Positions 15,542-33,352 of a stretch of 64,000 nt of DNA are shown here, piece by piece. The notes under the pieces were generated by a model. That model had not been told where the DNA came from and did no database searches. It worked only from the letters and a program-made list of their open reading frames with translations. Position 1 is the first letter of the stretch. Every line of letters starts with the position of its first letter. Where the stretch lies: positions 111,762 through 175,761 of the forward strand of contig NZCT01000024.1 of NCBI GenBank assembly GCA_002688355.1, in the 5' to 3' direction. The position numbers and the translations under genes are program-made. The stretch is from an archaeon (GTDB taxonomy: Archaea; Nanobdellota; Nanobdellia; SCGC-AAA011-G17; GW2011-AR20).

Positions 15542-15542
15542 A

Positions 15543-16730: not shown

Positions 16731-17598
16731 TGAAAACACAAAAGTTCTAGTACAAGGAATAACTGGAAAAGAAGGTTCAAAATCAACCAAAGATATGTTA
16801 GACTATGGAACAAAAGTTTTATGTGGAGTCACTCCAGGGAAAGGTGGGCAAGAAGTTCATGGTATCCCAGTTTACAACACAATAAAAGAAGCACTAAAAG
16901 AACATGATGTAAATACTTCAATAATTTCCGTTCCCCCTTTAAGAGCTAAAGAAGCTGCATTTGAAGCTATTGAAAATAATATTCCATTAATAAATTTAAT
17001 ATCAGAACAAATACCAATTCATGACACTTCAAAGATTTTACAATATGCAAAAGAAAAAAATATTAGAATTGTAGGACCTTCATCTATTGGCATTATTTCT
17101 CCTGGAAAAGCTAAAATTGGTTATATTGGTGGATCTGAAAATAAATCATTCTTGCAAGGGAATGTAGGGATCATATCTAAATCTGGAGGGATGTGTTCTG
17201 AAACAGCACTAATATTAAAACAAAAAAACATTGGTCAAAGTACAGTTCTTGGAACTGGAGGAGATGAATTACTTGGAACTGATTTTGTAGATGCTTTAAA
17301 ATTGTTTAGAGATGATAAAGAAACTAAAGCAATCGTTTTATTTGGAGAAATTGGTGGCTCTTACGAAGAAGAAGCAGCAAAATATATAATAGAAACAAAA
17401 TATGAAAAACCAGTTATAGCGTTTATCTCAGGAAAATTTACTTCACAATTTCCTAACATAACATTTGGTCACGCTGGTGCAATAATAGAAGGTAACAAAG
17501 GAACAAGAGAAAACAAAATAAAAGAGCTTAAAAAAGCGGGGGTTCTAATAGCAGAAGTACATCATGAGATTGCTGATTTAGTTAAAGGAGTAATGTAA
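16714..17598 (+). CDS. Succinyl-CoA synthetase alpha-subunit-like CoA-binding protein
   Basis: MAILIDENTKVLVQGITGKEGS...KVLCGVTPGKGGQEVHGIPVYNT and phospho-His loop FGHAGAIIEGNKGT. The start is taken at ATG 16714 (MAILID) rather than the track start at 16681, giving a 17-nt overlap with the upstream gene. Confidence 0.7.
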   Translation: MAILIDENTKVLVQGITGKEGSKSTKDMLDYGTKVLCGVTPGKGGQEVHGIPVYNTIKEALKEHDVNTSIISVPPLRAKEAAFEAIENNIPLINLISEQIPIHDTSKILQYAKEKNIRIVGPSSIGIISPGKAKIGYIGGSENKSFLQGNVGIISKSGGMCSETALILKQKNIGQSTVLGTGGDELLGTDFVDALKLFRDDKETKAIVLFGEIGGSYEEEAAKYIIETKYEKPVIAFISGKFTSQFPNITFGHAGAIIEGNKGTRENKIKELKKAGVLIAEVHHEIADLVKGVM

Positions 17599-17599
17599 A

Positions 17600-18331
17600 A
17601 TGGAATGGAAAACAAAAATATCAAACTTTAATGGTAAAGATGAAACAGTGAAAGGTTTTGATTTAAATGATTTAATCGGAAAAGTTTCTTTTTCTGAAAT
17701 GATATTTATTTTACTAAAAGGAGAAAAACCTAAAGAAAATGAAATAAAATTAATGGATGCAATTTTAGTTGCTACAGCAGAACATGGAATAAATACTCCT
17801 TCAACATTAAGTGCAAGAGTATCAGCATCAGCAACACATAATCTAATCTCTTCCTTAACTGCAGGAATTTCTTCAATAGGCCAATATCATGGAGGTGCAA
17901 TAGAATCATTAGCACAAATACTACAAGAAAATAATTCAAAATCAGCAAAAGATATTGTACAAGAGTTCACAAGTAAAAATCAAAGACTTCCTGGCTTTGG
18001 TCATAAAATATACGAAACAGATCCAAGAGCAGTAAGATTATTTGCAGTAGCAAACGATCTAGGAATTAATAGCACTTACACAAAATTAACAAAAGAACTT
18101 GAACAAGAACTTGAACAAGTAAAAGGTAAAAAATTATGTATAAACATTGACGGTTGTTTAGCAGCATTAATATCTGAATTAAACTTCAATTGGAAAATTG
18201 CAAATATATTTTTTGTTTTACCAAGAATCTTAGGTCTAACAGCACATATTCAAGAAGAAATAGAAGAAGAGAAACCATATAGAAGACTAAACCAAGAGGA
18301 TATTAAGTATGAGAGTAATAGCAACAGTTGA
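17600..18331 (+). CDS. Short citrate-synthase-family protein (citryl-CoA lyase-like)
   Basis: ILVATAEHGINTPSTLSARVSASATHNLISSLTAGISSIGQYHGGAIE and GFGHKIYETDPRAVRL match the citrate synthase catalytic-domain motifs (GPLHGG and GFGHRVYK..DPR). The 243-aa size matches citryl-CoA lyase or the ACL C-terminal domain rather than a full citrate synthase. Confidence 0.6.
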   Translation: MEWKTKISNFNGKDETVKGFDLNDLIGKVSFSEMIFILLKGEKPKENEIKLMDAILVATAEHGINTPSTLSARVSASATHNLISSLTAGISSIGQYHGGAIESLAQILQENNSKSAKDIVQEFTSKNQRLPGFGHKIYETDPRAVRLFAVANDLGINSTYTKLTKELEQELEQVKGKKLCINIDGCLAALISELNFNWKIANIFFVLPRILGLTAHIQEEIEEEKPYRRLNQEDIKYESNSNS

Positions 18332-19043
18332 AGCAAGAATGGCAGCAACAAGACTTCCAGGAAAAGTCTTGGCAGATATAAAAGGTAAACCTGAATTACA
18401 AATATTTCTAGAAAGAGTAACTAAAGCAAAAAAAATTGATGATATAATCGTTGCAACAACAACAAATCCAAAAGATATAGAAATTGTTAATCTATGTAAA
18501 AAATTAAACGTTAAATATTTTAGAGGTTCTGAAGAAGATGTTCTCTCTCGAGTACTAGCAGCAGCTAAATCTTTAAATGCAGATATAATAGTTGAACTAT
18601 GTGCAGATGATCCTTTCATGGATCCAACAGTAATAGATGCAGCAATTGAACATTTCCTAAATAATGACTTTGACTATATGTCTAATTTTCATCCACTAAC
18701 TTTTCCACCAGGAATAGGTGTACAAATTTTTCCATTAAAAGTTTTAGATGAAATAGATAAGTTAACAAATAATCCGTATGATAGAGAAAATGTAACATGG
18801 TACATATATCACAATAAAGACAAATACAAATGCGGTAATTATCCAGCTCCAAAACATTTAGCAGATCCAAAAACAAAACTAGATTTAGATTATCCAGAAG
18901 ATCTTGAATTTATAAGAAAGGTATTTGATAATTTTGATGATATTCATTTCTCATTAAGAGATGTTTTAGATTTACTAGAAAAAAATCCAGAGTTAAAAGA
19001 GATTAATGCTAACAGATATGTTGGTGATGAAAGATACGAATAA
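18309..19043 (+). CDS. CMP-sugar synthetase / acylneuraminate cytidylyltransferase family (NeuA/PseF/LegF/SpsF-like)
   Basis: MRVIATVEARMAATRLPGKVLADIKGKP matches the N-terminal motif of CTP_transf_3 cytidylyltransferases. The start overlaps the upstream gene. Confidence 0.65.
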   Translation: MRVIATVEARMAATRLPGKVLADIKGKPELQIFLERVTKAKKIDDIIVATTTNPKDIEIVNLCKKLNVKYFRGSEEDVLSRVLAAAKSLNADIIVELCADDPFMDPTVIDAAIEHFLNNDFDYMSNFHPLTFPPGIGVQIFPLKVLDEIDKLTNNPYDRENVTWYIYHNKDKYKCGNYPAPKHLADPKTKLDLDYPEDLEFIRKVFDNFDDIHFSLRDVLDLLEKNPELKEINANRYVGDERYE

Positions 19044-19577
19044 TTATTTCTTTATTTTTCCATAATGAACTAAATCATAATATTTTCCATTCTTTAACAT
19101 TCCATCCTTAGATATTCCTTCCTTTTCCATACCACAATTTTCTGCTAATTTTTGCATACCAATATTTTCTATATTAGTTCCACAATATAATCGATGTAAG
19201 TTCATTTTACTAAACCCATAATCCATAATTAATTTCCAAGCTTCTTTTCCAACACCAGTTCCCCAATAATCTTTCTCCCCAATTATTATTGCAATCTCAG
19301 CATTGCTATCTTTTTTATTAATTTTCTGTAAAGAAATGTTTCCAATATGTCTATCATTATTCTTATCAATTATAGCAAATACCAAAGTATGTTCAGAATT
19401 TCTAACAGATTTAACATATTCTAATGTTTTCTCTTTTGTATTTACAACTTCACCATGTCCATTATATTTACAAACTTCCTTATCATTAAACCATTCTGGA
19501 TAATTTCCTTCAACATCAGATTCCTCAATCTGTCTAAGATAAATATTTTCTCCAATTAATTTAATATCTTCAGTCAT
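19044..19577 (-). CDS. GNAT-family N-acetyltransferase (RimL/Acetyltransf_3-like)
   Basis: HIGNISLQKIN...AEIAIIIGEKDYWGTGVGKEAWK, a GNAT acetyl-CoA-binding motif A-like region. Confidence 0.6.
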   Translation of the reverse strand: MTEDIKLIGENIYLRQIEESDVEGNYPEWFNDKEVCKYNGHGEVVNTKEKTLEYVKSVRNSEHTLVFAIIDKNNDRHIGNISLQKINKKDSNAEIAIIIGEKDYWGTGVGKEAWKLIMDYGFSKMNLHRLYCGTNIENIGMQKLAENCGMEKEGISKDGMLKNGKYYDLVHYGKIKK

Positions 19578-19628
19578 AAGATAATCACAATAGTGAAATT
19601 TATAACCTTTTCTAAGTAAATTTTAAAA

Positions 19629-20654
19629 ATGGAAAAAGAGTATAAAATTGGGATTATAGGACTTGGTAGAGTAGCTAATGAATTTGATAATGATCCAAAA
19701 AGAAAAGTAATCTGGAGTCATACAGGAGCTTATTCTAATAATCAAAAATGTAAACTAACTGCAATATGTGATTTAGATCAAGAAAAACTAAATAATTGCG
19801 CAGAAAAATATAATGTTCCTAAAACTTACACAGATTATAATGAAATGTTACAAAAAGAAGATTTAGATATTCTAAGCATTTGCACTTGGAACTCAACACA
19901 TTATCCAATTTTAAAAGCAGCAGTGGAAAATGGAGTAAAAGCAATATACTGTGAAAAACCAATAGCAAATAATCTAAAAGAAGCTGATGAAATGATAAAA
20001 CTATGCAAAGAAAATAATGTAAAACTAATGATTAACCATTGGAGACGTTTTGATGGTCTACATCCAAAAGTAAAAAAATACATTGATTCAGGTAATCTAG
20101 GAAATGTACAACAAGTTAACTTTTATTATACAGCAGGCATTGCTAACTCAGGATCGCATATGTTTGATCTACTAAGATATTTATTTGGAGATGTTTCCTG
20201 GATTGAAGCTCATTATAAAACTCAAGATGAAGATCCAAATATTGATGGACTCATAAAATTCAAGAATAATCTTCTCTGCACAATCCAATCCCTGGACGTA
20301 GATAGTTACACAAGATTTAACTTAATAATTTTTGGTACAAAAGGAAAAATAGAAATCACAAGAAATGGTTTTGACCTTGATATGTATGAAGCAAAACAAA
20401 GTGATAAATTTTCAGAATACAAAGAACTATACAAAATACCTTCAACAATAAATTTCAAAGAAGAAAGTCATATGGAACATGGAATTGCTCATTTAATAGA
20501 TTGTCTAGAAAATAATAAAACACCAATATCTAGTGGAAAAGATGGTCGTGAATCTTTATCATTAATCTGTGCTTTTCATGAATCTGCAAAAGAAGATGGT
20601 AAAAGAATACAAATACCTTTAAAAGAAAGCAACATAGAAATAAAATCGAAATAA
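19629..20654 (+). CDS. Gfo/Idh/MocA-family NAD(P)-dependent sugar oxidoreductase (WbpB-like)
   Basis: MEKEYKIGIIGLGRVANEF N-terminal Rossmann motif, ...CEKPIANNLKEADEM, and typical length. Confidence 0.7.
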   Translation: MEKEYKIGIIGLGRVANEFDNDPKRKVIWSHTGAYSNNQKCKLTAICDLDQEKLNNCAEKYNVPKTYTDYNEMLQKEDLDILSICTWNSTHYPILKAAVENGVKAIYCEKPIANNLKEADEMIKLCKENNVKLMINHWRRFDGLHPKVKKYIDSGNLGNVQQVNFYYTAGIANSGSHMFDLLRYLFGDVSWIEAHYKTQDEDPNIDGLIKFKNNLLCTIQSLDVDSYTRFNLIIFGTKGKIEITRNGFDLDMYEAKQSDKFSEYKELYKIPSTINFKEESHMEHGIAHLIDCLENNKTPISSGKDGRESLSLICAFHESAKEDGKRIQIPLKESNIEIKSK

Positions 20655-20655
20655 A

Positions 20656-21909
20656 ATGGCAAACCTAGCAATAAATGGAGGAGAAAAATTTAGAAAAGAA
20701 CCTTTTCCAAAACATCCAATAATTGGAGATGAAGAAAAAAAAGCAGCCCTAGACGTTCTAGAAAGAGGGGAATTATCAACATTTTTAGCTTCTCCAGGAC
20801 AATACTTTCTTGGTGGTAAAAAAATAAAAGAATTTGAAGATTATTGTAAAAATTATTTTAATGTAAAACACGCAATATTAATGAATTCTGCAACAGCTTG
20901 TTTACATGCTTCTCTTCCCGCTATCGGGGTAAAAGAAGGAGAAGAAGTCTTAGTTACTCCTTATTCTATGTCATGTAGTGCAACTTGTGCTTTAATGAAC
21001 AACACAGTTCCAATATTTGTTGACGTTAATGAAGAAAATTTCTCTATAGACCCAAAAAAAATAGAAGAGAAAATTACAGAAAAAACAAAAGCAATTATTG
21101 TTGTGCATTTATTTGGAGGTCCAGCAAACATGGATGAAATTATGGAAATTGCAAAAAAACACAACTTAAAAGTTATTGAAGACTGTGCTCAATCTCCTGG
21201 TGGAACATACAAAGATAAATTATTAGGAACAATTGGTGATTGCGGATTATTCTCATTTACAGAAACAAAAAACATTACAGCAGGTGAAGGTGGATTATTA
21301 ATAACAAATGATGATTCTATAGCAGATGTAGCTCAATTAATAAGAAATCATGGTGAAGCTGTTATAGTAGATCAGCCAAGAACTTATAGTTCCACAATTT
21401 TAGGCTACAATTATAGAATGACTGAGATAGATGCAGCAATTGGTTTAGAACAATTTAAAAAATTAGATTCTCTTAATAATCAAAGAATAAAATTAGCTGA
21501 GTATCTATCTGAAAAAATAAAACAAGAAGTTCCAGGAATTACTCCTTATTTAAATAATGAAAATGGTAAAAACGTTTATTTTATTTTACCTTTCAAATAT
21601 TCTGAATCTAAAGTAGGAATACCAAGAGATAAATTCATAGAAGCTTTAAACGCAGAAGGAATTCCATTTGGTTCAGGTTACGTAAAACCTCTTTACCTAA
21701 GTCCAATATTTCATGAAAACAAACATTTTGCATTAAAACATTTTGCTTCTCATATAAGTTACGACAAAGGTATTTGTCCAACTGTAGAAAAATTACATGA
21801 AAAAGAAATTATCTTAACATTAATAGCAAGACCTCCAGCAACTCTAAAAGATATGGATGATATTGTTGAAGCAATGAAAAAAATCATTGAAAATAAAGAA
21901 GAATTATAA
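20656..21909 (+). CDS. DegT/DnrJ/EryC1/StrS-family PLP-dependent sugar aminotransferase (WbpE-like)
   Basis: AINGGEKFRKEPFPKHPIIGDEEKKAALDVLERGELS...CAQSPGG...FSFTETKNITAGEGG (PLP-lysine region). Confidence 0.75.
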   Translation: MANLAINGGEKFRKEPFPKHPIIGDEEKKAALDVLERGELSTFLASPGQYFLGGKKIKEFEDYCKNYFNVKHAILMNSATACLHASLPAIGVKEGEEVLVTPYSMSCSATCALMNNTVPIFVDVNEENFSIDPKKIEEKITEKTKAIIVVHLFGGPANMDEIMEIAKKHNLKVIEDCAQSPGGTYKDKLLGTIGDCGLFSFTETKNITAGEGGLLITNDDSIADVAQLIRNHGEAVIVDQPRTYSSTILGYNYRMTEIDAAIGLEQFKKLDSLNNQRIKLAEYLSEKIKQEVPGITPYLNNENGKNVYFILPFKYSESKVGIPRDKFIEALNAEGIPFGSGYVKPLYLSPIFHENKHFALKHFASHISYDKGICPTVEKLHEKEIILTLIARPPATLKDMDDIVEAMKKIIENKEEL

Positions 21910-22230
21910 CTAACCGATACATATTGATTCCAATTCACCTGTAAAAACAGATTCTTTTTTCAATTTTTGAAACCTTTTATATTTTTCTGTAAAAGGAATC
22001 TTAGGTTTATTCAATGATAATAAAGCAAAATCCATTCCCCTAAGATGTAAAGTTTCAGTCCACATACGTTCTATCTCATGATGAGTTTTCTCTCCATCAA
22101 AATCTTTTCCAGTTTCTTTAAGGTAATTAACTAAATTTCTAAAAGAAGAAACTCCTTCAGGACTAAAAGGATAGCTAGAAGAGAATTCTGTTAATAATTT
22201 AGAATATCTATCTTGATTATATTTTTCCAT
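21910..22230 (-). CDS. Hypothetical protein
   Basis: ORF only; no motif recognised. Confidence 0.3.
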   Translation of the reverse strand: MEKYNQDRYSKLLTEFSSSYPFSPEGVSSFRNLVNYLKETGKDFDGEKTHHEIERMWTETLHLRGMDFALLSLNKPKIPFTEKYKRFQKLKKESVFTGELESICIG

Positions 22231-22279: not shown

Positions 22280-22684
22280 CTACTTAGAAAAAAGATAATC
22301 GGCATGTTTACAATCATTACAATTCTTATTTATACAATTACCAGAAGTTAATCCATATTTTATTCCCCATGATTTAGCTTTATTGAAAACATCTGTTAAA
22401 TCTTTACCTTTCTTAGTTAAAGCATAAACAACAGAAAGTGGATTTTTTTGAATAATTTTCCTTTCAACAAGAGAATGTTTTCCAAGTTCTTTCAATCTTC
22501 GAGAAAGAATCCTATTTGTTGGGTTCTTCAATCTAATTTTAAGATTGTTAAAACTAGTCATGTCATTATGATACAATTCTTGTAAAATAAGAATAGTCCA
22601 TTTCTTTCCAACCAATTTATGGATATCTAACACAGCACATTCCATAGGTATACAAAGAGATACTTCCCTTTTAAATATTATCAT
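22280..22684 (-). CDS. HxlR-type winged-helix transcriptional regulator with C-terminal Cys-rich tail
   Basis: KKWTILILQELYHNDMTSFNNLKIRLKNPTNRILSRRLKELGKHSLVERK matches the HxlR/DUF24 wHTH pattern. The C-terminus has CINKNCNDCKH. Confidence 0.5.
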   Translation of the reverse strand: MIIFKREVSLCIPMECAVLDIHKLVGKKWTILILQELYHNDMTSFNNLKIRLKNPTNRILSRRLKELGKHSLVERKIIQKNPLSVVYALTKKGKDLTDVFNKAKSWGIKYGLTSGNCINKNCNDCKHADYLFSK

Positions 22685-22699
22685 GAAGTAAATTTTCCC

Positions 22700-24217
22700 A
22701 TGGCTCTCGAAACTTTAACCACAACAAATGAACAAGATAGAATAGTTAAATCTAAAGTACCAATAACACCAACTCTAGAAAAATTACTTAACCCAAATCT
22801 TCACAAAAAAGAGCCTATTTTTACAAGTCCTTTAAAAAAACCAAAAGAAGGGGAAAAAGTTTACGATCTTTCACCAGAACAAATTAAAGCAATTCAAGAA
22901 CTAAGAGGAGCAGTAGTTGATCTACATCCAGGAATGGGTGGCGTTGTTCCCAGTAAACTAATACAAATGATTGAAGATGGAATTCCAGTTACTTCATTAG
23001 ATTTTATGATGACAAAAGGATGTAACTTTGAATGTACATGGTGTTATGCTGGTTCAAGTCCATTTGCTACAGAATTTCTTCCTTTTAATAAACTAGAATC
23101 TATAACTCAAGAAGCTGCAGATATTGGAGTCAGTTTATTTATTCTTACTGGTGGTGAGCCTCTTACATATAAAGATCCTGCTTTAGGAAAAGTAAACCAT
23201 AGAGGAGAACATTTTTTCAAAGTTGTTGAGATGATCAAAAATACATACGAACGACAAGGAAAAGAAGCTAAAATTTTAACATTTGATGATGTAGCTTTAA
23301 TCAATGAAAGGATTGCAGAACAATTTGCACATTACAAAATAGGATTATGTACAAAAGGCGACACGTTACATCCTGAATTACAAGATTATAAAGTAAACCA
23401 AGTCGGAGCCTTTAAAAAAATGGAAAAAGGTAATGAAAATTTAATAAAAGTGGGTTATGGGAAAAACCCTGATCTAAGAAATGTAGTTAATTCTGTTTTT
23501 GACCATACAACTTTTGATGGAATGCCAGATCTACATATGTTAGTCAAAGAAAGAGGATTTGATCATTCAATAGTTCCCATTCATTTTTGTGGAAATGCTG
23601 GGGATGAAGATCAAGAAGCAGGGATTCACTCACCCCACGTCAAAGTTCTATATGATCTTCTTTCTAAAGTTGATGAAAAATATTTTGATGAACACTGGGA
23701 ACCTTGGTCAGCATTTACATATAATAAAACCTGTAATAGAAATTTATCAGGCCTTCATATAAGAGCAAATGGTGATGTAACTTCATGTTCAGAATCTCCT
23801 GGAAGAGATGAAACAGACAGGTATACATTTGGCAATATATTTACAGATGAAAATTTCTCCTTAGAAGAATTAGCTTTTAGTAATCGTCTTGCAAACTATA
23901 GAACAGAATTCGCAGAAGGATCTGGAACATATGTATGTGCACCAGATATTTGTGATTTAAATGCTAACGATCTATGCCGAGGTGGATGTGCAGTAAGATC
24001 AGCATATTCAGGTATTAATTATGAAACAGGTTTAATTGAAGAAGGAACAGATGTTCACAATTACAGCACACATAGAGAAGATCCTTTATGCCCAGCATGG
24101 ACAAAACTTGCATTAACACAAGGCATTCTAAAAGAAGGTTTACTTTCAGCTATTCATGAAAGATTGCTTGAAAAAAGTGAAAAATTAGATATTAAAGATT
24201 TTCCTAATCCTTACTGA
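22700..24217 (+). CDS. Radical SAM protein with C-terminal SPASM/twitch-like Cys-rich domain
   Basis: MMTKGCNFECTWCYAG (CxxxCxxC), then GGEPL. The C-terminal region has seven Cys (TSCSESPG...VCAPDICDLNANDLCRGGCAVRS). Confidence 0.7.
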   Translation: MALETLTTTNEQDRIVKSKVPITPTLEKLLNPNLHKKEPIFTSPLKKPKEGEKVYDLSPEQIKAIQELRGAVVDLHPGMGGVVPSKLIQMIEDGIPVTSLDFMMTKGCNFECTWCYAGSSPFATEFLPFNKLESITQEAADIGVSLFILTGGEPLTYKDPALGKVNHRGEHFFKVVEMIKNTYERQGKEAKILTFDDVALINERIAEQFAHYKIGLCTKGDTLHPELQDYKVNQVGAFKKMEKGNENLIKVGYGKNPDLRNVVNSVFDHTTFDGMPDLHMLVKERGFDHSIVPIHFCGNAGDEDQEAGIHSPHVKVLYDLLSKVDEKYFDEHWEPWSAFTYNKTCNRNLSGLHIRANGDVTSCSESPGRDETDRYTFGNIFTDENFSLEELAFSNRLANYRTEFAEGSGTYVCAPDICDLNANDLCRGGCAVRSAYSGINYETGLIEEGTDVHNYSTHREDPLCPAWTKLALTQGILKEGLLSAIHERLLEKSEKLDIKDFPNPY

Positions 24218-26340
24218 GCAAAAGTAGATGTATGAAAAACATGATCTTCCATTTTAGTTTCATATTTCTCTTCAGAAGATTCAACTTGATAAAATAAATC
24301 GCTTATTCTCATATATTCACTCATTTTCCTTAAAGTAAAATTCAAATTAACATTCTTAAATTGATTAATATTACTGTTCAAAGCTTCAACTTGATCATTA
24401 GGTAAATAAAATTTATAATTAATCTTTCCAGCATATTCGTGTAAATTTTTATGATAAGAATCTCGTTTCCATTTTAGCACATCAAAATCAAATTCATTAT
24501 GCTTTTCTATTTCAATTTTAAATTCCTTTTCAATATCTAAACCACTAAAATTAACTCTTAACATGCTTTCAAATTTAATAATATTATCCACAGCAGTTTC
24601 ATAATCTAAAGAAGGACTTTTCTTAGAAATTAATTCTTTAGCTATCTTTCCTAAGTAAATATCAAATTCATTTGGACAATCAGTTATAGTCTTAAAAGTA
24701 TATTGGAAATTTAACTTGCCAAATCCGCCATTCTTTAACTTTTCAAATTCTTCCTCTTTACTATAATGTTCTATTAATTCTTCTTTTGTATCAAACCATT
24801 CTCCCCTAGAGTCGTTATCAAACTCTTTTAATAATTTTTGAACTTCCTTAGGAGCGTTTTCAATATTTTCCATTACAGCAATTAAAAAATCCATAGGATT
24901 AATATCATAAGATTGAATATATTTTAACAAACCCCTATAGTATTTATAATTCCAAGTAAATTGAACTAACCATTGTAATTTCCTAAAGAAAAACAATTCT
25001 TCTTCTGACATATGTTTAGTCGACTTAACCATTTCTTCATATTCAAAAGATTTATACCCACCGTAAGTACCAAAACAAGTATCTATTAATCTAAACTTAG
25101 TCTTAATACCATTTCTTTCCCTATACTCAGGAAGAGACATCTCAGCTCCATTTAACAACCTACAATGATAAACAATTATCTGTCCAGCATCCATATCCAT
25201 TAACTCTCTTAACGCGTTTAAATGACTCTCCTTAGTCTCAAAAGGCATTCCTAGCACCATTTCAGCATCTGAATCAATACCATTATCATGAAAAAAAGTT
25301 AGTAATTCCTTATATGCATCTTGACTAATATTATCTCTTCTAATTTCCTTTAAGGTTTCTAAATTCATAGATTGTAATGACGCATCAACACTTGCTAGCT
25401 CCCCCAACATAGTTGCAATTTTCTTTATCCCATCACTTTTATTCTTAGCCCAAAATGTTGTAACTTTCCTCGGGTAACTGTGTTTATCACTTAATTCCCT
25501 CATTATCTTAGAAAATTCATAATCCCTCTCACTAAAGATTCCAAAATTAGAATCAGAAATACACAATATGTTAGTATTCTTTGTTTCTTCTACTTTTTTA
25601 GCAATATAATAAAACTCTTCTTTTATTCTATCAAATGGAAACATAGCCATCTTCTGATAATCTAAATCTCCCCATACGCAAAAAGTACAAGGATATGGAC
25701 ATCCTCTATTTGTTTCTAAATTAGGAATTAAATTATCCTCAAAAAATTCATCCATTACTCCAGTTAAATACGGAGAAGGTATAACACTAAGATCTTTAAT
25801 TACAGGAGTTTCTTCTCCTCTAATAACTTCATCTTTTTCTTTATCATAATATGCAGTATCTTTTATTACACTTTTTTTCATAAGATTAATGTCTTTATTA
25901 CACTCAAAATATTTCTCTAAAAGATTAACAAATCCAGGTTCTCCTTTATGAATTACATAAAAATCTAAATTATTTTGTTTTTGTAAATAATCTTTTATTA
26001 AATCTGGTCTTATGTGTATATTCGGTCCACCCATTACAGTCATTATTTCAGGATGTTTACTTTTTACATATTTTAACAAATTAATATTTAAATTCTCATT
26101 CCAAGCATAATTACTCAATCCAAGAATATCAGGAGGATTTTTCTCAATCTCTTCTAATAATTTATCTGGGTATTTAAATAATTTAACTGTTAGTTTATCG
26201 CCATAAATTTTATTCAGATATGCTTTAATATATCCAATATTAATTGGAAACATAAAAGGACCTTTACCAACATAATTATGTACAAGATCAGCAAAATAAA
26301 TTACAGTATTTTCTTTTTTAGATTGATTATTCATATTCAA
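24211..26340 (-). CDS. B12-binding domain / radical SAM protein (class B), 709 aa with a long C-terminal extension
   Basis: N-terminal B12-binding-like region (ILGLSNYAWN...TVMGGPNIHI), radical SAM motif TNRGCPYPCTFCVWG, and ~250 aa of additional C-terminal sequence. Confidence 0.7.
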   Translation of the reverse strand: MNMNNQSKKENTVIYFADLVHNYVGKGPFMFPINIGYIKAYLNKIYGDKLTVKLFKYPDKLLEEIEKNPPDILGLSNYAWNENLNINLLKYVKSKHPEIMTVMGGPNIHIRPDLIKDYLQKQNNLDFYVIHKGEPGFVNLLEKYFECNKDINLMKKSVIKDTAYYDKEKDEVIRGEETPVIKDLSVIPSPYLTGVMDEFFEDNLIPNLETNRGCPYPCTFCVWGDLDYQKMAMFPFDRIKEEFYYIAKKVEETKNTNILCISDSNFGIFSERDYEFSKIMRELSDKHSYPRKVTTFWAKNKSDGIKKIATMLGELASVDASLQSMNLETLKEIRRDNISQDAYKELLTFFHDNGIDSDAEMVLGMPFETKESHLNALRELMDMDAGQIIVYHCRLLNGAEMSLPEYRERNGIKTKFRLIDTCFGTYGGYKSFEYEEMVKSTKHMSEEELFFFRKLQWLVQFTWNYKYYRGLLKYIQSYDINPMDFLIAVMENIENAPKEVQKLLKEFDNDSRGEWFDTKEELIEHYSKEEEFEKLKNGGFGKLNFQYTFKTITDCPNEFDIYLGKIAKELISKKSPSLDYETAVDNIIKFESMLRVNFSGLDIEKEFKIEIEKHNEFDFDVLKWKRDSYHKNLHEYAGKINYKFYLPNDQVEALNSNINQFKNVNLNFTLRKMSEYMRISDLFYQVESSEEKYETKMEDHVFHTSTFAQ

Positions 26341-26358: not shown

Positions 26359-27405
26359 TTAAACCTTATCCCAAGTTATTCCTTCATCTTCTTTTATATC
26401 TCTCTTAGCTTCTCTTCCTACTATAACATCTAAATATCTAGGATGTAATCCTTCTAAAGATCTTTTCCTCCCAACCATATAATCTTCTATTTTAGTTCCC
26501 ATGGGAATATCAATATTTGCTACAATTCTCCTTCTTCCAGATTGCATAGCATAAATCTCTTCTCCAGTTATTTTCCTAACCTCTGATCCAAGAGATAATC
26601 TAACTTCCTTAATACCATCTGTCATTTCCTTTAACTCAATAGGATCTACAGAAATAGGATGATCAGGTGCACCTTTAATATTCTTATCAATTGTAAAATG
26701 TTTTTCAATTAACTTAGCACCCAAAACAGAAGCTGCAATCGGAATATGAATTCCTAAAGTATGATCAGAAAGTCCAACAGGTTGTTCAGGAAAAACTTTT
26801 TGTAAAGTTTGCATAAATTTAACATTAGCCTGATCTGCTGGAGTAGGATATATAACCATACAATGCAATATAATAACATCGTTATTTCCTTCATTCTTAA
26901 TAGCATTAACAGCTTCTTCAACTTCTCCAATATTACCCATTCCAACAGAAAGTATAATTGGTTTATTTTTCTTAGCAATATATCTCAAAAAAGGAATATT
27001 TGTTAAATCAGTGGAAGCAATTTTATACGCAGGAACCTCTAACTCTTCTAAAAAATCTACACTTTCTTCATCAAAAGGAGTAGATAAAAAAACAATATTT
27101 TTTTCTTTACAATAACTTACTAATTCTTTCCACTCATCTTTGCTTAAATCGTCCTGAGTTTCATATAAACTACTTTGCGTAGTTCCTTCAGCATTCTTTT
27201 CCCAAAATCTAGGAACTGTTTTAGTAACTAATTTACTTGAAGTAAATGTTTGAAATTTAATTGCGTCAGCACCACCTTCAGCAGCTTTTTCTATTAATTG
27301 CTTACCTCTCTCAAGAATACAATCATGATTGCATCCTGCTTCGGCAATTACATAAGTAGGATTATCTCCTCCAATAGATTTTTCCCCTATTTTTATTTCC
27401 CTCAT
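26359..27405 (-). CDS. N-acetylneuraminate/pseudaminate/legionaminate synthase family (NeuB-like) with C-terminal SAF domain
   Basis: MREIKIGEKSIGGDNPTYVIAEAGCNHD (NeuB N-terminal signature), TIM-barrel core, and C-terminal antifreeze-like SAF segment ANIDIPMGTKIEDYM. Confidence 0.8.
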   Translation of the reverse strand: MREIKIGEKSIGGDNPTYVIAEAGCNHDCILERGKQLIEKAAEGGADAIKFQTFTSSKLVTKTVPRFWEKNAEGTTQSSLYETQDDLSKDEWKELVSYCKEKNIVFLSTPFDEESVDFLEELEVPAYKIASTDLTNIPFLRYIAKKNKPIILSVGMGNIGEVEEAVNAIKNEGNNDVIILHCMVIYPTPADQANVKFMQTLQKVFPEQPVGLSDHTLGIHIPIAASVLGAKLIEKHFTIDKNIKGAPDHPISVDPIELKEMTDGIKEVRLSLGSEVRKITGEEIYAMQSGRRRIVANIDIPMGTKIEDYMVGRKRSLEGLHPRYLDVIVGREAKRDIKEDEGITWDKV

Positions 27406-27437: not shown

Positions 27438-28421
27438 CTATTCATTAAAATTACGCTTAACTATATCTACAACTCTATCTAGTCCTTTACCATCAACTAA
27501 TTCTTGTCCCTTTTTATTCATTTTTTCTCGTAAATTATAATCACTATTTAATTTATTTACTTCATTTCTCAACTCTTCTTCTAAGATTTTAGTTCCCAAT
27601 CCTAAATAAACACTTGTTCCAAATTCAACAAATAATTTGTTTCTATTATCCTCTAATTCATTCTGCGCTAAAACTAATATAGGTAATCCAGTTGCAGCAC
27701 ATTCAAAACTTGTATATCCCCCCGAAACAATACCCACGTCTGCGTTTAACATTAATTTAGATAAATCACTTAACCCTTCATGTAGATTAACATTCTCATA
27801 ATCAGAGTTTATCTTTTCTAGTTCATTTTTATATTTAAAATTAGGAACCATAACAATATCTAATTCTAAATTAGAATCCTTCAAAGCATTAACAGTCTTT
27901 AATGTTAAGCTATTCAAATCTGAACCTCCAAAACAAACAAAAATTCTTTTATTCTCTTTATTCAAAATTCTTTTAGGTAGATTTTTATAAGAATCACTCA
28001 ATAAAGCATATTTAGGCCCATAGTAATATTCTTTTCTAGAGCCAGGATATAAAGAATTAATAACAACATTAGCAATGTTTCTAGTGTCAGTTTCTTGAGA
28101 ATGCTCCATATTTATAATAAAAATATTATTCTCTTTTAACAATTCCATATACGCCTTATTAGCATATAATAAATCATTAAAAACAACATTAGGGTTATAT
28201 TCCTTAATCAATTCAATTTGGCTTTTAATATCATCAAAATCAACTTCTTTAACATTATATCCTCTATCTTTAACAACATTCATACCTAACTTTGATTCTG
28301 AAGACATAACAAATAAAACTTCAATTTCGTCTTTGATTTTGTCAGCAATTCTCAAAGGGGTAAAAGTATGGCCCATTCCAACTTTATTATTCCCTTCTAC
28401 TCTAAAAACTATTCTTTTCAT
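27438..28421 (-). CDS. PseG-like UDP-sugar hydrolase (GT-B-like, pseudaminic acid pathway)
   Basis: MKRIVFRVEGNNKVGMGHTFTPLRIADKI matches the PseG N-terminal GxGHxxR motif. The size is 327 aa. Confidence 0.55.
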   Translation of the reverse strand: MKRIVFRVEGNNKVGMGHTFTPLRIADKIKDEIEVLFVMSSESKLGMNVVKDRGYNVKEVDFDDIKSQIELIKEYNPNVVFNDLLYANKAYMELLKENNIFIINMEHSQETDTRNIANVVINSLYPGSRKEYYYGPKYALLSDSYKNLPKRILNKENKRIFVCFGGSDLNSLTLKTVNALKDSNLELDIVMVPNFKYKNELEKINSDYENVNLHEGLSDLSKLMLNADVGIVSGGYTSFECAATGLPILVLAQNELEDNRNKLFVEFGTSVYLGLGTKILEEELRNEVNKLNSDYNLREKMNKKGQELVDGKGLDRVVDIVKRNFNE

Positions 28422-28455: not shown

Positions 28456-29403
28456 TCAAACTGTTATTTCTTTAGTTTTTTTAACCCATTCAACAGTTTC
28501 TTTTAATCCAAAATTTAAGTCATATAATTGTGTATATCCTAATTCATCATTAGCTTTACTTATATCTAAATAATTATGTTTTAAATCTCCAGTAAAAGGC
28601 CCAGAATATTCTGGTTTAACATCTTTATCTAAGAAGTTATTTATAATAAAAACTAATTCATTTAAACTTGTAGGAATACCACTTCCAATATTAATTATTT
28701 CTCCGTCAAAAGCGTCATTATTCAAAGCTTGAACATTAGCATCAACCACATTTTTTACATAAACAAAATCTCTTGTCTTAATTCCCTCACCCCAAATAAC
28801 AGGATTTTCATTATTCAAAATTTTATCAATAAATTTAGGAACAGCTGCAGCATAATGCGTCTTTAAATCTTGTCTAGGTCCAAAAACATTACTTAATCTT
28901 AATATCACAGTTCTCAAACCGTAAGTTTCATGAAATAATTTACAATAATATTCTCCAAGTAATTTTGTAACAGCATAAGTGGATTTTGGCATAGGAACAA
29001 AATTCTCTTTTAAAGGTAAAACCGGATTTTCTCCATAAACAACAGAAGAACCTGCAAATAAAAATCCCTTAATATTATTTCTTCTAGCTGCTTCTAAAGC
29101 ATTATACGTTCCGTTAATATTAACATTATGATATTCAATAGGATTCTTTATAGATTCTAAAATGTACTTCAACGCCGCGTAGTGTAAAACATAATCAAAA
29201 TCCTTAAATTCCTTTTCTAAAAATTCTAAATCTGTAATATCACCTTCAACAAATTCAAATTTATCTTTAACATTCTCTAAATTATTTAAATCTCCATTAC
29301 TCAAATTATCTATAACTTTAACTTCATGACCATTAGTTATCAATTCTTCAACTACATGACTTCCAATAAATCCTGCTCCCCCTGTAACTATTACTTTTGC
29401 CAT
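28456..29403 (-). CDS. NAD-dependent sugar epimerase/dehydratase (UDP-glucose 4-epimerase-like)
   Basis: MAKVIVTGGAGFIGSHVVEEL and YAVTK (YxxxK). Confidence 0.75.
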   Translation of the reverse strand: MAKVIVTGGAGFIGSHVVEELITNGHEVKVIDNLSNGDLNNLENVKDKFEFVEGDITDLEFLEKEFKDFDYVLHYAALKYILESIKNPIEYHNVNINGTYNALEAARRNNIKGFLFAGSSVVYGENPVLPLKENFVPMPKSTYAVTKLLGEYYCKLFHETYGLRTVILRLSNVFGPRQDLKTHYAAAVPKFIDKILNNENPVIWGEGIKTRDFVYVKNVVDANVQALNNDAFDGEIINIGSGIPTSLNELVFIINNFLDKDVKPEYSGPFTGDLKHNYLDISKANDELGYTQLYDLNFGLKETVEWVKKTKEITV

Positions 29404-30663
29404 TTATTTGTAAGTTAACCCTCCAACTTTTACTTCATCTTTAAATTTTTTCAATAATTCTCTTAACTGATCTTCATTAAGGTTACTATGATCAATATTA
29501 ACATAATACTCCCCGCCTTTACCAACTTGAAAATATTTACTCCAATCAGAGTTTTCTGGTTTCATAATTTGTATACCATATTTTTCAGGATCTTCCCACA
29601 AAGGAGTACTTGGATAAGGTGTTAAAATATAAGCATCAGCATATTCCAAATTTAAACTTCTAGCAAAATTAATTGTATCTATAGCCGTCTCCCAAGTTTC
29701 TCCAGGCAAACCAATAATAAAAAATCCTTTAACTTTAATACCTGCTTTATGACACATTTCAACACCTTTTCTTTGTATATCCACTGTCATATACTTCTCC
29801 ATTTTTTTTAATACTTCATCATTTCCACTTTCCAATCCTAAACTTACAATATCGCAACCAGCATTTCTTATACTATAACATAGTTCTTGTGTCAATAAAT
29901 TAGCTCTCGTAGTACATCTCCAAGTGATATCTTTTTTAGGGAAATTTTCTGTAATCAGATTACATAGTTTTAAAACCCTATCAAATTTAAATGTGAAAAT
30001 ATCATCTCCAAAATAAAATCCCCTTATATCAAATTTATCATATAACAATCTCATCTCTTTAATAATATTCTCTGGGCTTCTTGCTCTCCATTTTTTAATT
30101 TTAGCAGATCCACAATAAACACAACTAAAGACACATCCTCTTGAGGTAACCATAACAACAGCCTTCTTACCATTTAAATCCATATCATATTTTCCCATGT
30201 TAAGATTATCATAATCTGGGAAGGGCAGTGCATCTAAATCTTCAATAGGTTTAGAAATAATAAGTTTAGTTTCATCACCTCCCAAAATTTTTTTAATAGC
30301 TTCTTCTCCATCGCCAACAACTAAATGATCAAAAGTTTCGTTACTAGTTTTTTCAGTAGGCATATCTGTAATATGATTACCTCCTGCAATTAATTTTATA
30401 TTTGGATACAATTCTCTTATTTTTTTAGCTAGTTTTATACAATCAAAATAATTTGGTGTTGAAACACTAAAACAAACATAATCATAATTATTCTTTAAAT
30501 TTTCAAATAAATATTCTTCATTATCATGATTTAAATCAATTAACTTAGAATTATAACCTAATTTTTTACAATAAGAATCCAATAAAGCTAATCCTAATGG
30601 CAATCTATCTCCTTTTTTATCTAAAAACTTATCTTCAGGATTAACAAATAAAATTGATTTCAT
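29404..30663 (-). CDS. B12-binding domain / radical SAM protein (class B), immediately downstream of pepM
   Basis: N-terminal B12-like domain ([11 protein letters not shown]) and [14 protein letters not shown] (CxxxCxxC). Its stop abuts the next ORF and its start overlaps the pepM fusion gene by 4 bp. Confidence 0.75.
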
Positions 30664-31979
30664 TTTTCTTTTATCATCCCATTCCCATCAGGGATTAAAT
30701 TAATTACTTGTTTTATTGGCATACACAAATCTTCAACTTCATGTGCCCTTTCATTTCTTAAAATAGATTCTGAAACTTTAACCATTGCTGGATACGCTGA
30801 CCTAAGTAAATGATTTGCATAGATTACCATATTAATTCCGTTATCAGCGAGTTCTTTTTCTGTTATATGTGAATATGTTGAAGGCACAACAACCAATGGA
30901 ACTTTATTTTCAAATTCTTTATACTTTTGACAAAATTCTTTAATTTCATCAAAGCTCTTTTCCTTACTATGTATCATTATAGCATCAGCTCCAGCTTCAA
31001 TATATGCCTTAGCTCTCCTTAACGCATCATCCATACCTTTCTTTAGAATCAGACTTTCAATTCTTGCTATAATCATAAAATCTTCTGTTACTTGTGCTTG
31101 TTTACCAAATTTTATTTTATTTGAAAAATCTTCTATTGTATCTTGAGTCTGCTCTACATCAGTTCCATATAAAGAATTTTTCTTTGAGCCAATTTTATCT
31201 TCTATTATAACAGCAGAAATTCCTAATCTCTCCAAAGATTTAACTGTAAAAATAAAATGTTCTGCTAATCCTCCACTATCACCATCTACAACTATTGGTT
31301 TTGTAGTAACTTCCAAAATCTGTTCAATAGTATTTATCCTTGATGTAACGTCAACAGTTGCAGTGTCTGGTTTTCCTTTTGATGTTGAATCAGTTAAACT
31401 GCTTTCCCATATTCCATCAAATTCTCTTAGCTCTCCATTATCTAAAGTAATATTAGTTTTTTCAGCTATTAAACCAGTTAAACCATTATGAGCTTCTAAA
31501 ATTCTTACAATTGGTTTTGCAGCCAATAATCTTCTTAATTTGTTTTTTCTAAGTTCAGGAGTAGTTCCCATTTCCATCATATTTTGTATTAAATCTGTTG
31601 TAGAAACATCTCTTGTGTATTCAGGTTCGATTAATTTTCCACCCCATTCTTTCATTGCTTCAACAATATCATCTCTTTTACCTTTTTGAATTCCAGTCCT
31701 CCAATCCGTACCGTGAACCATGAAATCTGCTTTTAATTTTCTAACATTAGGAACATAATCCCATGTTTCTTGAGGAATAACTTCCTTAACACCTTTTAAA
31801 TTTTCTACAACAACTTTTCTTTGTTCAAAAGTTAAAAAAGGAAGCCTCTTATAATTCGCAATAGCTTTATCTGTAAGTAAACCGACAGTTACATCTCCTA
31901 ATTTTCTCGCTTCTTTAATTATATTAAGATGACCATGATGAACTGAATCACCACTCATTGGAACATATACAATTGTCAT
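30660..31979 (-). CDS. Cytidylyltransferase-phosphoenolpyruvate phosphomutase fusion (Fom1-like CyTase-PepM)
   Basis: N-terminal [21 protein letters not shown] (HxGH nucleotidyltransferase motif, GCT/TagD-like). From ~residue 135: [27 protein letters not shown] and [16 protein letters not shown], which are PEP mutase/isocitrate-lyase superfamily signatures including the EDK motif. Confidence 0.75.
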
Positions 31980-31993
31980 TTTATTCCTCCTTG

Positions 31994-33352
31994 TTAATCA
32001 AACCACTTTTTTGTTTCATTTGCAACTCTCTCTCCACTAGGAAGATATGATAATTCTTTTTGTGTAGAAAGATTTATTGCTCCAGATATACCTAAAGTTG
32101 CAATTCTTCCATTTTCTTCTCCATTATTTGAAAAAGCATGTCTAATAAATGGTTGAATATACATTGAATCTCCTTTACGTAAAATATCATTAAAAGTTTC
32201 TCCATTATGAATCCAACTAAAATCTAAATCAGAATCTCCATAATTATAAACATAAGTATGTAATGAATTATAAAATCCATTTTCAAGATTTTTTTCTTTA
32301 GAAAGAACTTCTATCTCAAAACCTTTCATAAAAGGCATTTTAGAACTTCTAGCTAAAGGATGTAATCTATAATTTTTATTCTCTGCATTAGGATAAAAAT
32401 ATCCTTCTTCTTCATCTTTACGTTTTACTACAACAACTTCTTCATTTGGTTTATAGTCAGGAATCATTAAATCACTAATTTCAATATTTAACACATTAGC
32501 AATTTTCTGTAAATCCTCAAAAGACTTATCTTGATTTTCATCTAAAATTCTATCATCTATTGTTCCATCTAAATCTCTTAAACTTTCTAAAGAAATTCTT
32601 TCATTATCCATATGTTGTTTGATTAATTGACTAACTGCTTTGTTATGATTTCTATAATCTAATGTAAATCCTTCAATAGCTCTTTCACCTAACGCATAAA
32701 ATTCTTTTTGTGCTCTACTTATATCCCCTCCAAATGTAACAGCAATAATAAGAGCTTCGTCTTCTTTACTTCTATTAGTAAAACTATGTGGCCAAAAAGG
32801 TGTTATATAATTAGAATCACCAGTATTCATCTCTTCACAATATCTTTTCCCATTCACTTCATAATAAAAATTAACAGGGCCAATAAAAAAAGTCATTTGA
32901 TGCATAAAATGTCCATTATTATAAGCTACATCAAGATTATTTGGATCACTATTCTCAACATATCTTAATTCTTTAATCCATTCTGGTTTAAAACCACTTA
33001 GCTTTGACATTGCTGTATCTCTATAATCATAATAATCTGTTCTTTCTCCAGTTTTATCTTTTCTATCAAATATTCTACTTGTTTCTTTAGATTCTTCTTC
33101 TCTCATTATTCTTACACCATTTTTACAATCATCTTCTATAAGGTGCAAATCAGAAACATCAATAGGATAACTTAAGCCAATCTTATTTATCAATTCATAT
33201 GTTTCCTCCTTTTTACAATCCCCAGATAATATTGAATTTAGTTTTCCAGCATCCATTCCAACCTCTGTAGCACAAGCTTCTGGAGTTCTCTTTAAATCAT
33301 TTAATTCACTTAATATTCTTGAACCAACTAATTTTAAAAAATCGTCTGTCAT
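31994..33352 (-). CDS. HEPD/MPnS/HppE-family non-heme-iron bicupin oxygenase; candidate methylphosphonate synthase-like enzyme
   Basis: 452 aa with an N-terminal HTH-like segment and cupin core [22 protein letters not shown]...ITPFWPHSF. By direct count the motif residues are H148, Q152, F162, I183 and H189, a 2-His-1-Gln pattern. The gene lies inside the pepM-ppd-adh operon. Confidence 0.6.

Follow-up and report, generated by a model that had tools for sequence, protein, structure and literature searches.

Fosfomycin biosynthesis in Streptomyces passes from 2-hydroxyethylphosphonate (HEP) to its cytidylylated form, on which a radical S-adenosylmethionine (SAM) enzyme then works (PMC6697681, PMC8158854). 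Fusions of a PF01467 domain to phosphoenolpyruvate (PEP) mutase are known as Fom1-type HEP cytidylyltransferases, and PntC, a cytidylyltransferase for phosphonates, belongs to the LicC family (PMC6697681). Here, we consider an archaeal stretch of 64,000 nucleotides (contig NZCT01000024.1, hereafter the window), and within it positions 22280–26340, where the gene of a 505-aa radical SAM protein with a SPASM domain lies between a divergent HxlR-family regulator gene and a convergent gene for a 709-aa cobalamin (B12)-dependent radical SAM enzyme. The window shares with the Fom1-Fom2-FomC-Fom3 system a cytidylyltransferase (CyTase)–PEP mutase (PepM, Ppm) fusion, a phosphonopyruvate decarboxylase (Ppd), and an iron-dependent alcohol dehydrogenase (Fe-ADH) for HEP, and in operons such as L035, L037, and L040 (L numbers designate the loci compared) a SPASM gene of the same family stands in the position of Fom3. 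Unlike Fom3, a class B methylase that depends on cobalamin, the window enzyme carries a SPASM domain and no B12 domain; moreover, the fosfomycin pathway makes an antibiotic, whereas the window context is one of cell-surface glycan or lipid decoration, with a methylphosphonate synthase (MpnS).

Among described enzymes, the 709-aa protein resembles the cobalamin-dependent radical SAM methylases TokK/ThnK (carbapenem pathway) and CysS (cystobactamid pathway), with which it shares the succession of Rossmann B12, radical SAM, and C-terminal domains. It differs from them in its identity of about 20%, in its occurrence in operons (even in fusions) with NeuB and CMP-transferase genes instead of antibiotic clusters, and in its substrate, presumably a nonulosonic acid (NulO) derivative and not a pantetheinylated scaffold. 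The SPASM and the 709-aa enzymes thus belong to known superfamilies, and neither has a characterized orthologue. The comparative data presented below make it likely, in our view, that two unrelated modules abut here, one (module A) formed by the SPASM and HxlR genes and linked to phosphonates, the other (module B) formed by the 709-aa enzyme as part of a NeuB operon. The genes of the region are as follows.

21910–22230, minus strand: 106-aa orphan open reading frame (ORF) adjoining the HxlR gene; no Pfam or NCBIfam match
22280–22684, minus strand: HxlR-family winged helix-turn-helix (wHTH) regulator, 134 aa; PF01638; divergent partner of the SPASM gene
22685–22699: gap of 15 bp between the start codons of the divergent HxlR and SPASM genes
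22700–24217, plus strand: SPASM radical SAM protein, 505 aa; variant 7-Cys SPASM domain and N-terminal extension of ~95 aa
24211–26340, minus strand: TokK/CysS/KedN5-like cobalamin-dependent radical SAM enzyme, 709 aa; PF02310 and PF04055; last gene of the NulO operon

An earlier note on this DNA had placed these four ORFs and named their domains, and both the positions and the domain calls hold (ORF list, PF01638, PF04055, PF02310). It had also read the regulator, the SPASM gene, and the 709-aa gene as one cluster, which the gene neighborhoods of both enzymes contradict.

The SPASM family and its phosphonate gene neighborhoods

The 505-aa protein, identical to the NCBI protein CL617_03585, matches the radical SAM profile PF04055 with 39.6 bits (cut-off 29.5), and both its CX3CX2C motif (C108/C112/C115) and its GGE motif (G151-G152-E153) are invariant in 23 sequences. 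The first half of the SPASM motif agrees with the canonical CX9-15GX4C (C345-X12-G358-X4-C363), and the second half has the right number of cysteines at an unusual spacing (C413-X4-C418-X7-C426-X3-C430, then C464), that is, CX4CX7CX3C where anSME, BtrN, and BlsE have CX2CX5CX3C. The enzyme is set further apart from these three by an identity of only 14–18%, by a different genomic context, by a conserved N-terminal extension of ~95 residues, and by two extra invariant cysteines, C217 and C297, located in the model where predicted strands of the barrel have their C-terminal ends. The 12 cysteines are all invariant across the relatives, a divergent clade at 43–47% identity included, and the invariant positions of the family are largely polar or charged. 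The predicted fold is that of a radical SAM barrel with a C-terminal auxiliary-cluster domain, preceded by an extension modeled as three short helices, with neither wHTH nor β-sheet. No close relative was found among solved structures, the closest structural neighbors of the model including SuiB, anSME, SkfB, PqqE, and CteB, with BlsE also close. An identity as the archaeal housekeeping enzyme Tes/GDGT-MAS (tetraether synthase) was rejected, neither sequence nor fold being nearer to 7TOL/7TOM than to those of other radical SAM enzymes, and no NCBIfam model came near its cut-off.

The family comprises about 180 clusters at 90% identity, all from uncultured genomes, with identities of 43–72% over more than 15 phyla, and a precomputed PF13186 match is present in many members. 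Its archaeal hosts are Woese-, Pace-, Nano-, and Aenigmarchaeota and one metagenome-assembled genome (MAG) of Thaumarchaeota; its bacterial hosts are Omnitrophota, Planctomycetota (including Scalindua), Nitrospinota, Deltaproteobacteria, candidate phyla radiation (CPR) bacteria, Gamma- and Alphaproteobacteria, Acidobacteriota, Armatimonadota, and Actinomycetota.

To survey the neighborhoods, 38 SPASM loci (35 non-redundant) were searched with every window protein and partners within 10 kb were counted. PepM, Ppd, or Fe-ADH was found in 24 of the 35 loci, and a phosphonate cassette gene in 14 of the 19 whose flanks reach 5 kb or more in both directions. The most frequent neighbor was Fe-ADH (23/35), followed by PEP mutase (21/35), Ppd (20/35), homologues of the window's 259-aa nucleotidyltransferase (NTP-transferase; 14/35), and MpnS-like cupins (7/35 by tblastn, 11 by clustering); an unbiased clustering of the ORFs returned the same ranking. 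NeuB, in contrast, occurred in two of the 35 loci and the 709-aa family in none of the 38, so that the association of the SPASM enzyme with nonulosonic acid genes proposed in the earlier note is not borne out. Operon-like orders recur, namely SPASM-Ppm-Ppd-FeADH (L035, L036, L037, L040), Ppd-FeADH-SPASM (L022, L025), MpnS-SPASM-Ppm-Ppd-FeADH (L031), and SPASM-NTP-MpnS-Ppm-Ppd-FeADH (L003, L013). The other conserved neighbors are surface-glycan or lipid genes (GT2 and GT4 glycosyltransferases, CDP-alcohol phosphatidyltransferase, flippase, CMP kinase). Moreover, a nucleotidyltransferase is encoded in 22 of the 24 cassette-bearing loci, and the two activities are found in one polypeptide, P0254 (722 aa, 15 member sequences), of which residues 1–251 are 64% identical to the window NTP-transferase and residues 252–697 are 46% identical to the window SPASM protein. 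The SPASM enzyme is, on this evidence, a component of HEP-type phosphonate pathways and is functionally coupled to the PntC-like nucleotidyltransferase. The suggestion of the earlier note that it is a tailoring-type enzyme of a glycan/phosphonate island thus stands, with the phosphonate option favored by the comparative data; no orthologue with a housekeeping role, such as would have spoken against that suggestion, came to light.

The window itself holds a phosphonate cassette, listed here with other genes that bear on it.

30660–31979, minus strand: Fom1-type HxGH cytidylyltransferase–PEP mutase fusion; TIGR02320, PF01467, PF13714
31994–33352, minus strand: methylphosphonate synthase MpnS (cupin), by similarity to Nitrosopumilus maritimus MpnS
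33349–34128, minus strand: LicC/PntC-type NTP-transferase, 259 aa; PF12804 and PF00483
34172–35317, minus strand: Fe-ADH of the phosphonoacetaldehyde reductase type (makes 2-HEP); PF00465 and PF25137
35314–36378, minus strand: Ppd; TIGR03297
36391–37149, plus strand: CDP-alcohol phosphatidyltransferase-family membrane protein; PF01066; candidate CMP-phosphonate transferase
11461–12129, plus strand: CDP-alcohol phosphatidyltransferase-family membrane protein, the first of two
13139–13663, plus strand: P-loop kinase of the adenylylsulfate (APS) kinase family; TIGR00455

The PEP mutase domain scores 408 bits against TIGR02320 (cut-off 319.55), and the fusion protein reads HHGH at residue 14 and has, at residue 260, ten residues that fit the EDKXXXXXNS motif; Ppd scores 331.5 bits against TIGR03297 (cut-off 312.5), Fe-ADH matches the Phn_Fe-ADH model with E = 9e-57, below its cut-off, and the best PDB relative of the NTP-transferase is LicC (E = 1.5e-15). 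The cupin is closer to MpnS of N. maritimus (6B9S; 316 bits, E = 6e-93) than to HEPD (6B9R; 224 bits, E = 3e-65), and it matches MpnS in its H/Q/F/I/H signature, which we take to consist of the iron ligands H/Q/H at 148, 152, and 190 and the second-shell residues F162 and I184 (N. maritimus numbering), having F and I where HEPD has Y and G. Judged by these residues, the cupin is a methylphosphonate synthase, and the gene content amounts to a complete methylphosphonate cassette in a DPANN-like archaeal host. That the host is a marine DPANN-type archaeon is indicated by a low GC content (about 28%), an archaeal S-layer domain, and best matches in Woesearchaeota. MpnS-like genes are also present in the Woese- and Pacearchaeota loci L005, L006, L028, and L031. 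The taxa for which a marine survey records MpnS are Thaumarchaeota/Crenarchaeota and a number of bacterial orders, but not DPANN (PMC9381506).

Among the 11 cupins of SPASM loci, the signature pattern holds in nine. The cupins of L014 (8276–9496) and L016 (6585–7823) form a shorter subgroup (~406–412 aa) with V or A for F162, H for I184, and HFEQQ in place of HFMHQ, and may catalyze a different HEP reaction. As for the CDP-alcohol phosphatidyltransferases, the gene at 36391–37149 is divergent from Ppd and has homologues in 5–6 SPASM loci, and both proteins are candidates for moving a CMP-activated phosphonate onto a lipid or glycan acceptor.

The regulator matches PF01638 with 70.4 bits (cut-off 20.8, E = 1.2e-19, residues 24–110), and homologues at 44–53% identity lie divergently 55–330 bp upstream of the SPASM gene in the archaeal loci L007, L012, L014, L015, and L028, that is, in five of the 35 loci. 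Like the HxlR/DUF24 regulators HxlR, YodB, HypR, and RrpA/B, it has a PF01638 domain with a conserved N-terminal cysteine, and among NCBIfam models it comes closest, though below cut-off, to those of the redox regulators RrpB and RrpA. Unlike them, it adds a C-terminal CX4CX2C tail, for four conserved cysteines in all, and its gene and a radical SAM gene form a conserved divergent pair among archaea of the DPANN type. The Cys-rich tail pointed out in the earlier note is C117-X4-C122-X2-C125, and together with C16 it is conserved in the three SPASM-linked homologues that were aligned (L012, L015, L028). This four-cysteine arrangement suggests that the regulator senses metal, or redox state through Fe-S or thiols, and it would probably gate expression by redox or metal status. 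With 15 bp between the HxlR and SPASM genes, either the promoters would overlap the coding regions or the transcripts would be leaderless. The 106-aa ORF beside the regulator is, as had been noticed before, without family. Its single credible full-length relative among 1.84 billion representatives is P0243 (139 aa, 31% identity, E = 1.6e-7), the remaining matches being repeat-protein noise, and no homologue was found in any other SPASM locus searched; it accordingly has the appearance of a lineage-restricted orphan. Overall, the HxlR and SPASM genes, possibly with the 106-aa ORF, are best explained as belonging to the phosphonate pathway of the window, from whose other genes they have become separated.

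The 709-aa enzyme and the nonulosonic acid operon

The 709-aa protein is identical to CL617_03590; its gene begins at TTG, and the database protein has 707 aa, from an ATG at 26334. It exceeds the cut-offs of PF02310 (35.2 bits against 32.1) and PF04055 (32.6 against 29.5), has its CX3CX2C motif at C214/C218/C221, and aligns with TokK (681 aa, E = 4e-40) and CysS (645 aa, E = 7e-39). Its AlphaFold model, of mean confidence (pLDDT) 89.6, was superposed by Foldseek on TokK, giving template-modeling (TM) scores of 0.74/0.78 for an alignment of 726 columns, and on CysS, giving 0.70/0.79. Since this superposition is full-length, the last 250 residues, which the earlier note had left without assignment, are the third domain of the TokK/CysS family and not an orphan extension.

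Closer relatives of this enzyme were examined by targeted look-up; a metagenome profile scan gave mostly distant paralogues. All of them, in L085 (76% identity), L167 (57%), L168 (55%), L169 (Omnitrophota, 44%), and L170 (Fundidesulfovibrio, 43%), lie in operons with NeuB and CTP_transf_3 genes, each with a second, smaller B12 radical SAM gene, and NeuB, CMP-transferase, and B12 radical SAM enzyme are even joined in a single polypeptide of 1214 aa (P0189). The order in L085 is B12(419)-epimerase-PseG-NeuB-B12(711)-CMP-transferase-GFO-DegT, a NeuB operon collinear with that of the window and without the SPASM, HxlR, and 106-aa genes. The NulO genes of the window are listed below, together with a further class B radical SAM gene.

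26359–27405, minus strand: NeuB-family nonulosonic acid synthase; PF03102, E = 2.6e-86
27438–28421, minus strand: PseG-like nucleotide-sugar hydrolase or GT-B protein; TIGR03590, E = 2.7e-35, below cut-off
28456–29403, minus strand: NAD-dependent epimerase/dehydratase; PF01370, E = 1e-64
29404–30663, minus strand: class B radical SAM protein, 419 aa; PF02310 and PF04055; HpnJ/BchE/PhpK-like by NCBIfam, all below cut-off; travels with the NulO operon
18309–19043, plus strand: CMP-NulO-synthetase-like protein; part of the other half of the NulO module (18309–21909)
19044–19577, minus strand: GNAT protein, inside that half
19629–20654, plus strand: GFO/IDH oxidoreductase, same half
20656–21909, plus strand: DegT aminotransferase, same half
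6853–8292, minus strand: class B radical SAM protein; HpnJ/BchE/PhpK-like by NCBIfam, all below cut-off

By comparison with L085, the NulO operon of the window is inverted, and the SPASM block marks the junction. Judged against the same relative, the tight packing, in which the convergent SPASM and 709-aa genes share 7 bp at their stop codons (24211–24217) and DegT and the 106-aa ORF abut without a gap at 21909/21910, looks like an inversion or insertion junction. The 419-aa radical SAM gene adjoins the Fom1-like gene in the window, and in L085 the first gene of the NulO operon is a copy with 83% identity; it probably belongs to the NulO module instead of serving as a Fom3 analogue. As counted in the earlier note, the window has three class B radical SAM genes (6853–8292, 24211–26340, 29404–30663) and one of the SPASM type, with no further one among the window ORFs scanned. 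The density that the note had found striking is real, and it follows from the meeting of two modules that habitually carry radical SAM genes, NulO operons of this type having two B12-dependent ones.

By analogy with TokK and CysS, the 709-aa enzyme would most likely C-methylate a nonulosonic acid intermediate or an acyl substituent of it, possibly iteratively. No radical SAM enzyme of nonulosonic acid biosynthesis was found in the literature searched, and Rice et al. do not mention radical enzymes. Among the relatives, L170 is a named, non-MAG record (Fundidesulfovibrio butyratiphilus, 1–15992) whose NulO cluster encodes a 663-aa TokK-like enzyme and a 469-aa B12 radical SAM protein, together with an unrelated 334-aa SPASM radical SAM protein and an Fe-ADH; if culturable, which its species name makes plausible, this strain could be a tractable system for the radical modification of nonulosonic acids.

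Elsewhere in the window, three ATP-citrate lyase or citryl-CoA synthetase/lyase-like genes (15543–18331, plus strand; ATP-grasp and citrate-binding, CoA-ligase alpha-like, and citrate-synthase C-terminal domain, respectively) immediately precede the CMP-NulO-synthetase-like gene. They are oddly placed in a glycan island and may supply an unusual acyl donor. A 758-aa protein with an archaeal S-layer outer-domain match (54272–56548, minus strand), a 1222-aa ORF without Pfam match (60203–63871, minus strand), and, between them, several small ORFs without matches (52985–59048) were also observed; these are probably cell-envelope proteins that receive the glycans.

Proposed role of the SPASM enzyme and competing explanations

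In the pathway that the cassette suggests, PEP mutase, Ppd, and Fe-ADH would yield HEP, MpnS would turn HEP into methylphosphonate, and the Fom1-type and LicC/PntC-type cytidylyltransferases would produce CMP-phosphonates for a surface glycan or lipid. The most likely substrate of the SPASM enzyme would be HEP activated by a nucleotide, or else the compound that the PntC-like transferase directly uses or makes; Fom3 holds this position, after Fom1, Fom2, and FomC, in fosfomycin biosynthesis. SAM would be reductively cleaved at the C108/C112/C115 cluster, the resulting 5'-deoxyadenosyl radical would take a hydrogen from the two-carbon phosphonate chain, and the substrate radical would be resolved without cobalamin via two putative auxiliary [4Fe-4S] clusters, possibly with the participation of C217 and C297. 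Given these two putative clusters and the lack of a cobalamin domain, the simplest chemistry would be a two-electron oxidation of the BtrN/anSME type, or else the substrate radical would rearrange or fragment. Neither MpnS nor HEPD is present in at least six loci that have full flanks (L010, L012, L033, L034, L036, and L040), which makes the SPASM enzyme a leading candidate for the HEP-modifying step there; L034, L036, and L040 additionally carry a B12 radical SAM gene, whose product is an alternative candidate for that step. Conversely, MpnS co-occurs with the SPASM gene in 11 loci, so that the SPASM enzyme does not simply stand in for it. MpnS and HEPD share with the proposed SPASM reaction the HEP precursor and the cassettes, but they are O2-dependent enzymes of the cupin fold.

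Several observations weigh against this two-module account. On the phosphonate side, the SPASM profiles are marginally sub-threshold on the window protein (PF13186, 21.3 bits against 21.5; TIGR04085, 21.7 against 27), the window cassette (30660–36378, minus strand) lies 6.4 kb from the SPASM gene on the opposite strand, and no cassette gene is in reach in 11 of the 35 loci, some of them on short contigs and others (L001, L017, L026, L027) with long flanks. In addition, MpnS uses free HEP and yet co-occurs with the SPASM gene in 11 loci, blurring the order of steps, and the members of the family all stem from uncultured organisms. In L029 (Woesearchaeota), which lacks the cassette, the order is ATP-sulfurylase, APS-kinase, PHP, a 548-aa protein without assigned function, and SPASM, and in L171 (Omnitrophota) the SPASM gene follows APS-kinase and PAPS-reductase (PAPS, 3'-phosphoadenylylsulfate) genes amid housekeeping functions, PepM being absent from the surrounding 10 kb. 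These sulfur-type operons mean that the substrate might not be a phosphonate as such, and it is mainly the association with APS kinase that keeps our confidence from being higher. On the nonulosonic acid side, the KedN5 model NF033712 gives the 709-aa protein 194.8 bits against a cut-off of 700 (E = 2e-57, profile positions 17–398 of 624), from which we take it to be related to the KedN5 subfamily without being a member; among 82 loci of its distant relatives (25–36% identity), only about 9 have NeuB in the vicinity; and methylation is proposed for it from family resemblance.

Of the explanations that compete for the SPASM enzyme, one sees in it an O2-independent counterpart of MpnS/HEPD, which would take a hydrogen from (CMP-)HEP and cleave its C1–C2 bond, yielding (CMP-)methylphosphonate and a C1 fragment, with a redox-sensing HxlR regulator inducing it under reducing conditions. 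Many hosts belong to lineages regarded as anaerobic (Woesearchaeota, Omnitrophota, Scalindua, Deltaproteobacteria, and CPR bacteria), and pairs of O2-dependent and radical SAM isozymes exist in HemF/HemN and AcsF/BchE, both of which speak for such a counterpart, as do the embedding of the SPASM gene in HEP cassettes often devoid of any MpnS/HEPD and the presence of the four-cysteine HxlR partner. MpnS and SPASM genes are nevertheless adjacent in one operon in L003, L013, and L031, which, like their 11 co-occurrences, is unusual for isozymes, and the APS-kinase link would be left unexplained, so that we regard this cleavage as quite improbable. That link is the starting point of another proposal, in which the enzyme takes part in sulfur- or PAPS-type chemistry (C–S bond formation or processing of a 3'-phospho-nucleotide) and the phosphonate cassette is one context of several. 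An APS-kinase homologue lies within 5 kb of the SPASM gene in seven of the 35 loci, and the operons of L029 and of L171, the latter in a non-glycan context, fit this proposal as well. The window kinase is a clear family member (TIGR00455, 185 bits against a cut-off of 138.7), when tblastn found in the window neither an ATP-sulfurylase homologue (with the L029 enzyme as query) nor a PAPS-reductase homologue (with that of L171), and no sulfotransferase-family Pfam match was obtained among the window ORFs scanned. A precedent is offered by Cj1415, the cytidine diphosphoramidate kinase of Campylobacter jejuni, a CysC homologue that belongs, like the window kinase, to the APS-kinase family and to a pathway of surface-glycan modification with phosphorus, and that helps make CDP-phosphoramidate 3'-phosphate, a 3'-phospho-CDP donor (PMC11800397). 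Campylobacter also has ppm-ppd cores flanked by radical SAM and adenylsulfate kinase genes, which Li and Horsman left unclassified (PMC8942020) and which might belong to the same families; our genome scan for the SPASM family returned no Campylobacter locus. On one reading of the kinase link, the kinase would, after this precedent, 3'-phosphorylate a CMP-phosphonate into a PAPS-like donor; on the other, genuine sulfur chemistry takes place. A kinase without ATP-sulfurylase hints at Cj1415-like 3'-phosphorylation of a nucleotidyl-phosphonate over PAPS synthesis, whereas the ATP-sulfurylase of L029, which sets that locus apart from the Cj1415 case, leaves room for genuine PAPS synthesis. Against the sulfur proposal as a whole, phosphonate genes are three times commoner than the kinase around the SPASM gene, no sulfotransferase is found among the conserved neighbors, and ATP-sulfurylase, PHP, and PAPS-reductase, each confined to one locus, were rejected as recurrent partners; we therefore judge it decidedly improbable.

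A maturase of peptides made on ribosomes and modified post-translationally (RiPPs) or of proteins, whether of the sactisynthase or PqqE kind or an anSME-like enzyme that installs formylglycine in a phosphonate transferase of the sulfatase fold, is what the structural neighbors SuiB, anSME, SkfB, PqqE, and CteB would suggest, and the weak NCBIfam matches of the protein are mostly to RiPP maturases. All of these scores are, however, far below cut-off (for the anSME equivalog TIGR03942, 22.6 bits against 349.45), the model of the N-terminal 95 residues contains no element resembling the wHTH of a RiPP recognition element (RRE), the polar or charged character of the invariant residues does not favor this function, and neither a sulfatase nor a small ORF is among the neighbors of the SPASM gene conserved over the 35 loci, the recurring short ORFs being antisense artefacts inside larger genes. 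In the absence of sulfatase, precursor peptide, and RRE, the anSME-type and RiPP maturase identities were rejected, and a maturase is in our estimation very unlikely. Finally, the enzyme could tailor a nonulosonic acid or another glycan sugar, the three genes then forming one unit, as its physical adjacency to the NulO operon in the window and the closeness of its model to BlsE, a radical SAM enzyme acting on nucleoside sugars, would have it. The neighborhood counts for NeuB and for the 709-aa family, together with the SPASM-less L085, the closest relative of the NulO operon, led us to reject this identity, which we find hardly credible.

Possible phosphonate production in anoxic lineages and predicted nonulosonic acids

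No characterized phosphonate-linked SPASM radical SAM enzyme was found in the literature searched, and the family, strongly conserved and spread across domains without a curated model, resembles a missing step in the phosphonate pathway. Its close ties to HEP/MpnS cassettes are joined by a Rosetta-stone fusion, a wide horizontal spread, and a possible O2-independent role in lineages of anoxic habitats, and it offers a concrete target for expression. The bolder view that it is a hitherto unrecognized core enzyme of environmental phosphonate biosynthesis, performing O2-independent radical chemistry on (cytidylyl-)HEP, appears unlikely to us at present; within it, the enzyme could open an anaerobic route to methylphosphonate or lead to a new phosphonate head group, perhaps delivered by a PAPS-like 3'-phospho-nucleotide donor that the co-occurring APS-kinase homologue would make.

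On the side of the nonulosonic acids, the TokK-like B12 radical SAM enzymes consistently occur in NeuB operons, usually paired with a smaller B12-dependent one, which predicts C-alkylated nonulosonic acids, compounds that to our knowledge have not been described so far. With regard to the phosphonates, aerobic methane production and the cycling of phosphorus are fed by methylphosphonate and HEP that marine macromolecules carry as esters, and the processing and attachment of these groups are still largely obscure. If the SPASM family were indeed an O2-independent HEP-transforming enzyme, the production of phosphonates, and possibly of methylphosphonate, would extend to lineages of anoxic groundwater and sediment, namely DPANN archaea, CPR bacteria, Omnitrophota, and anammox bacteria.

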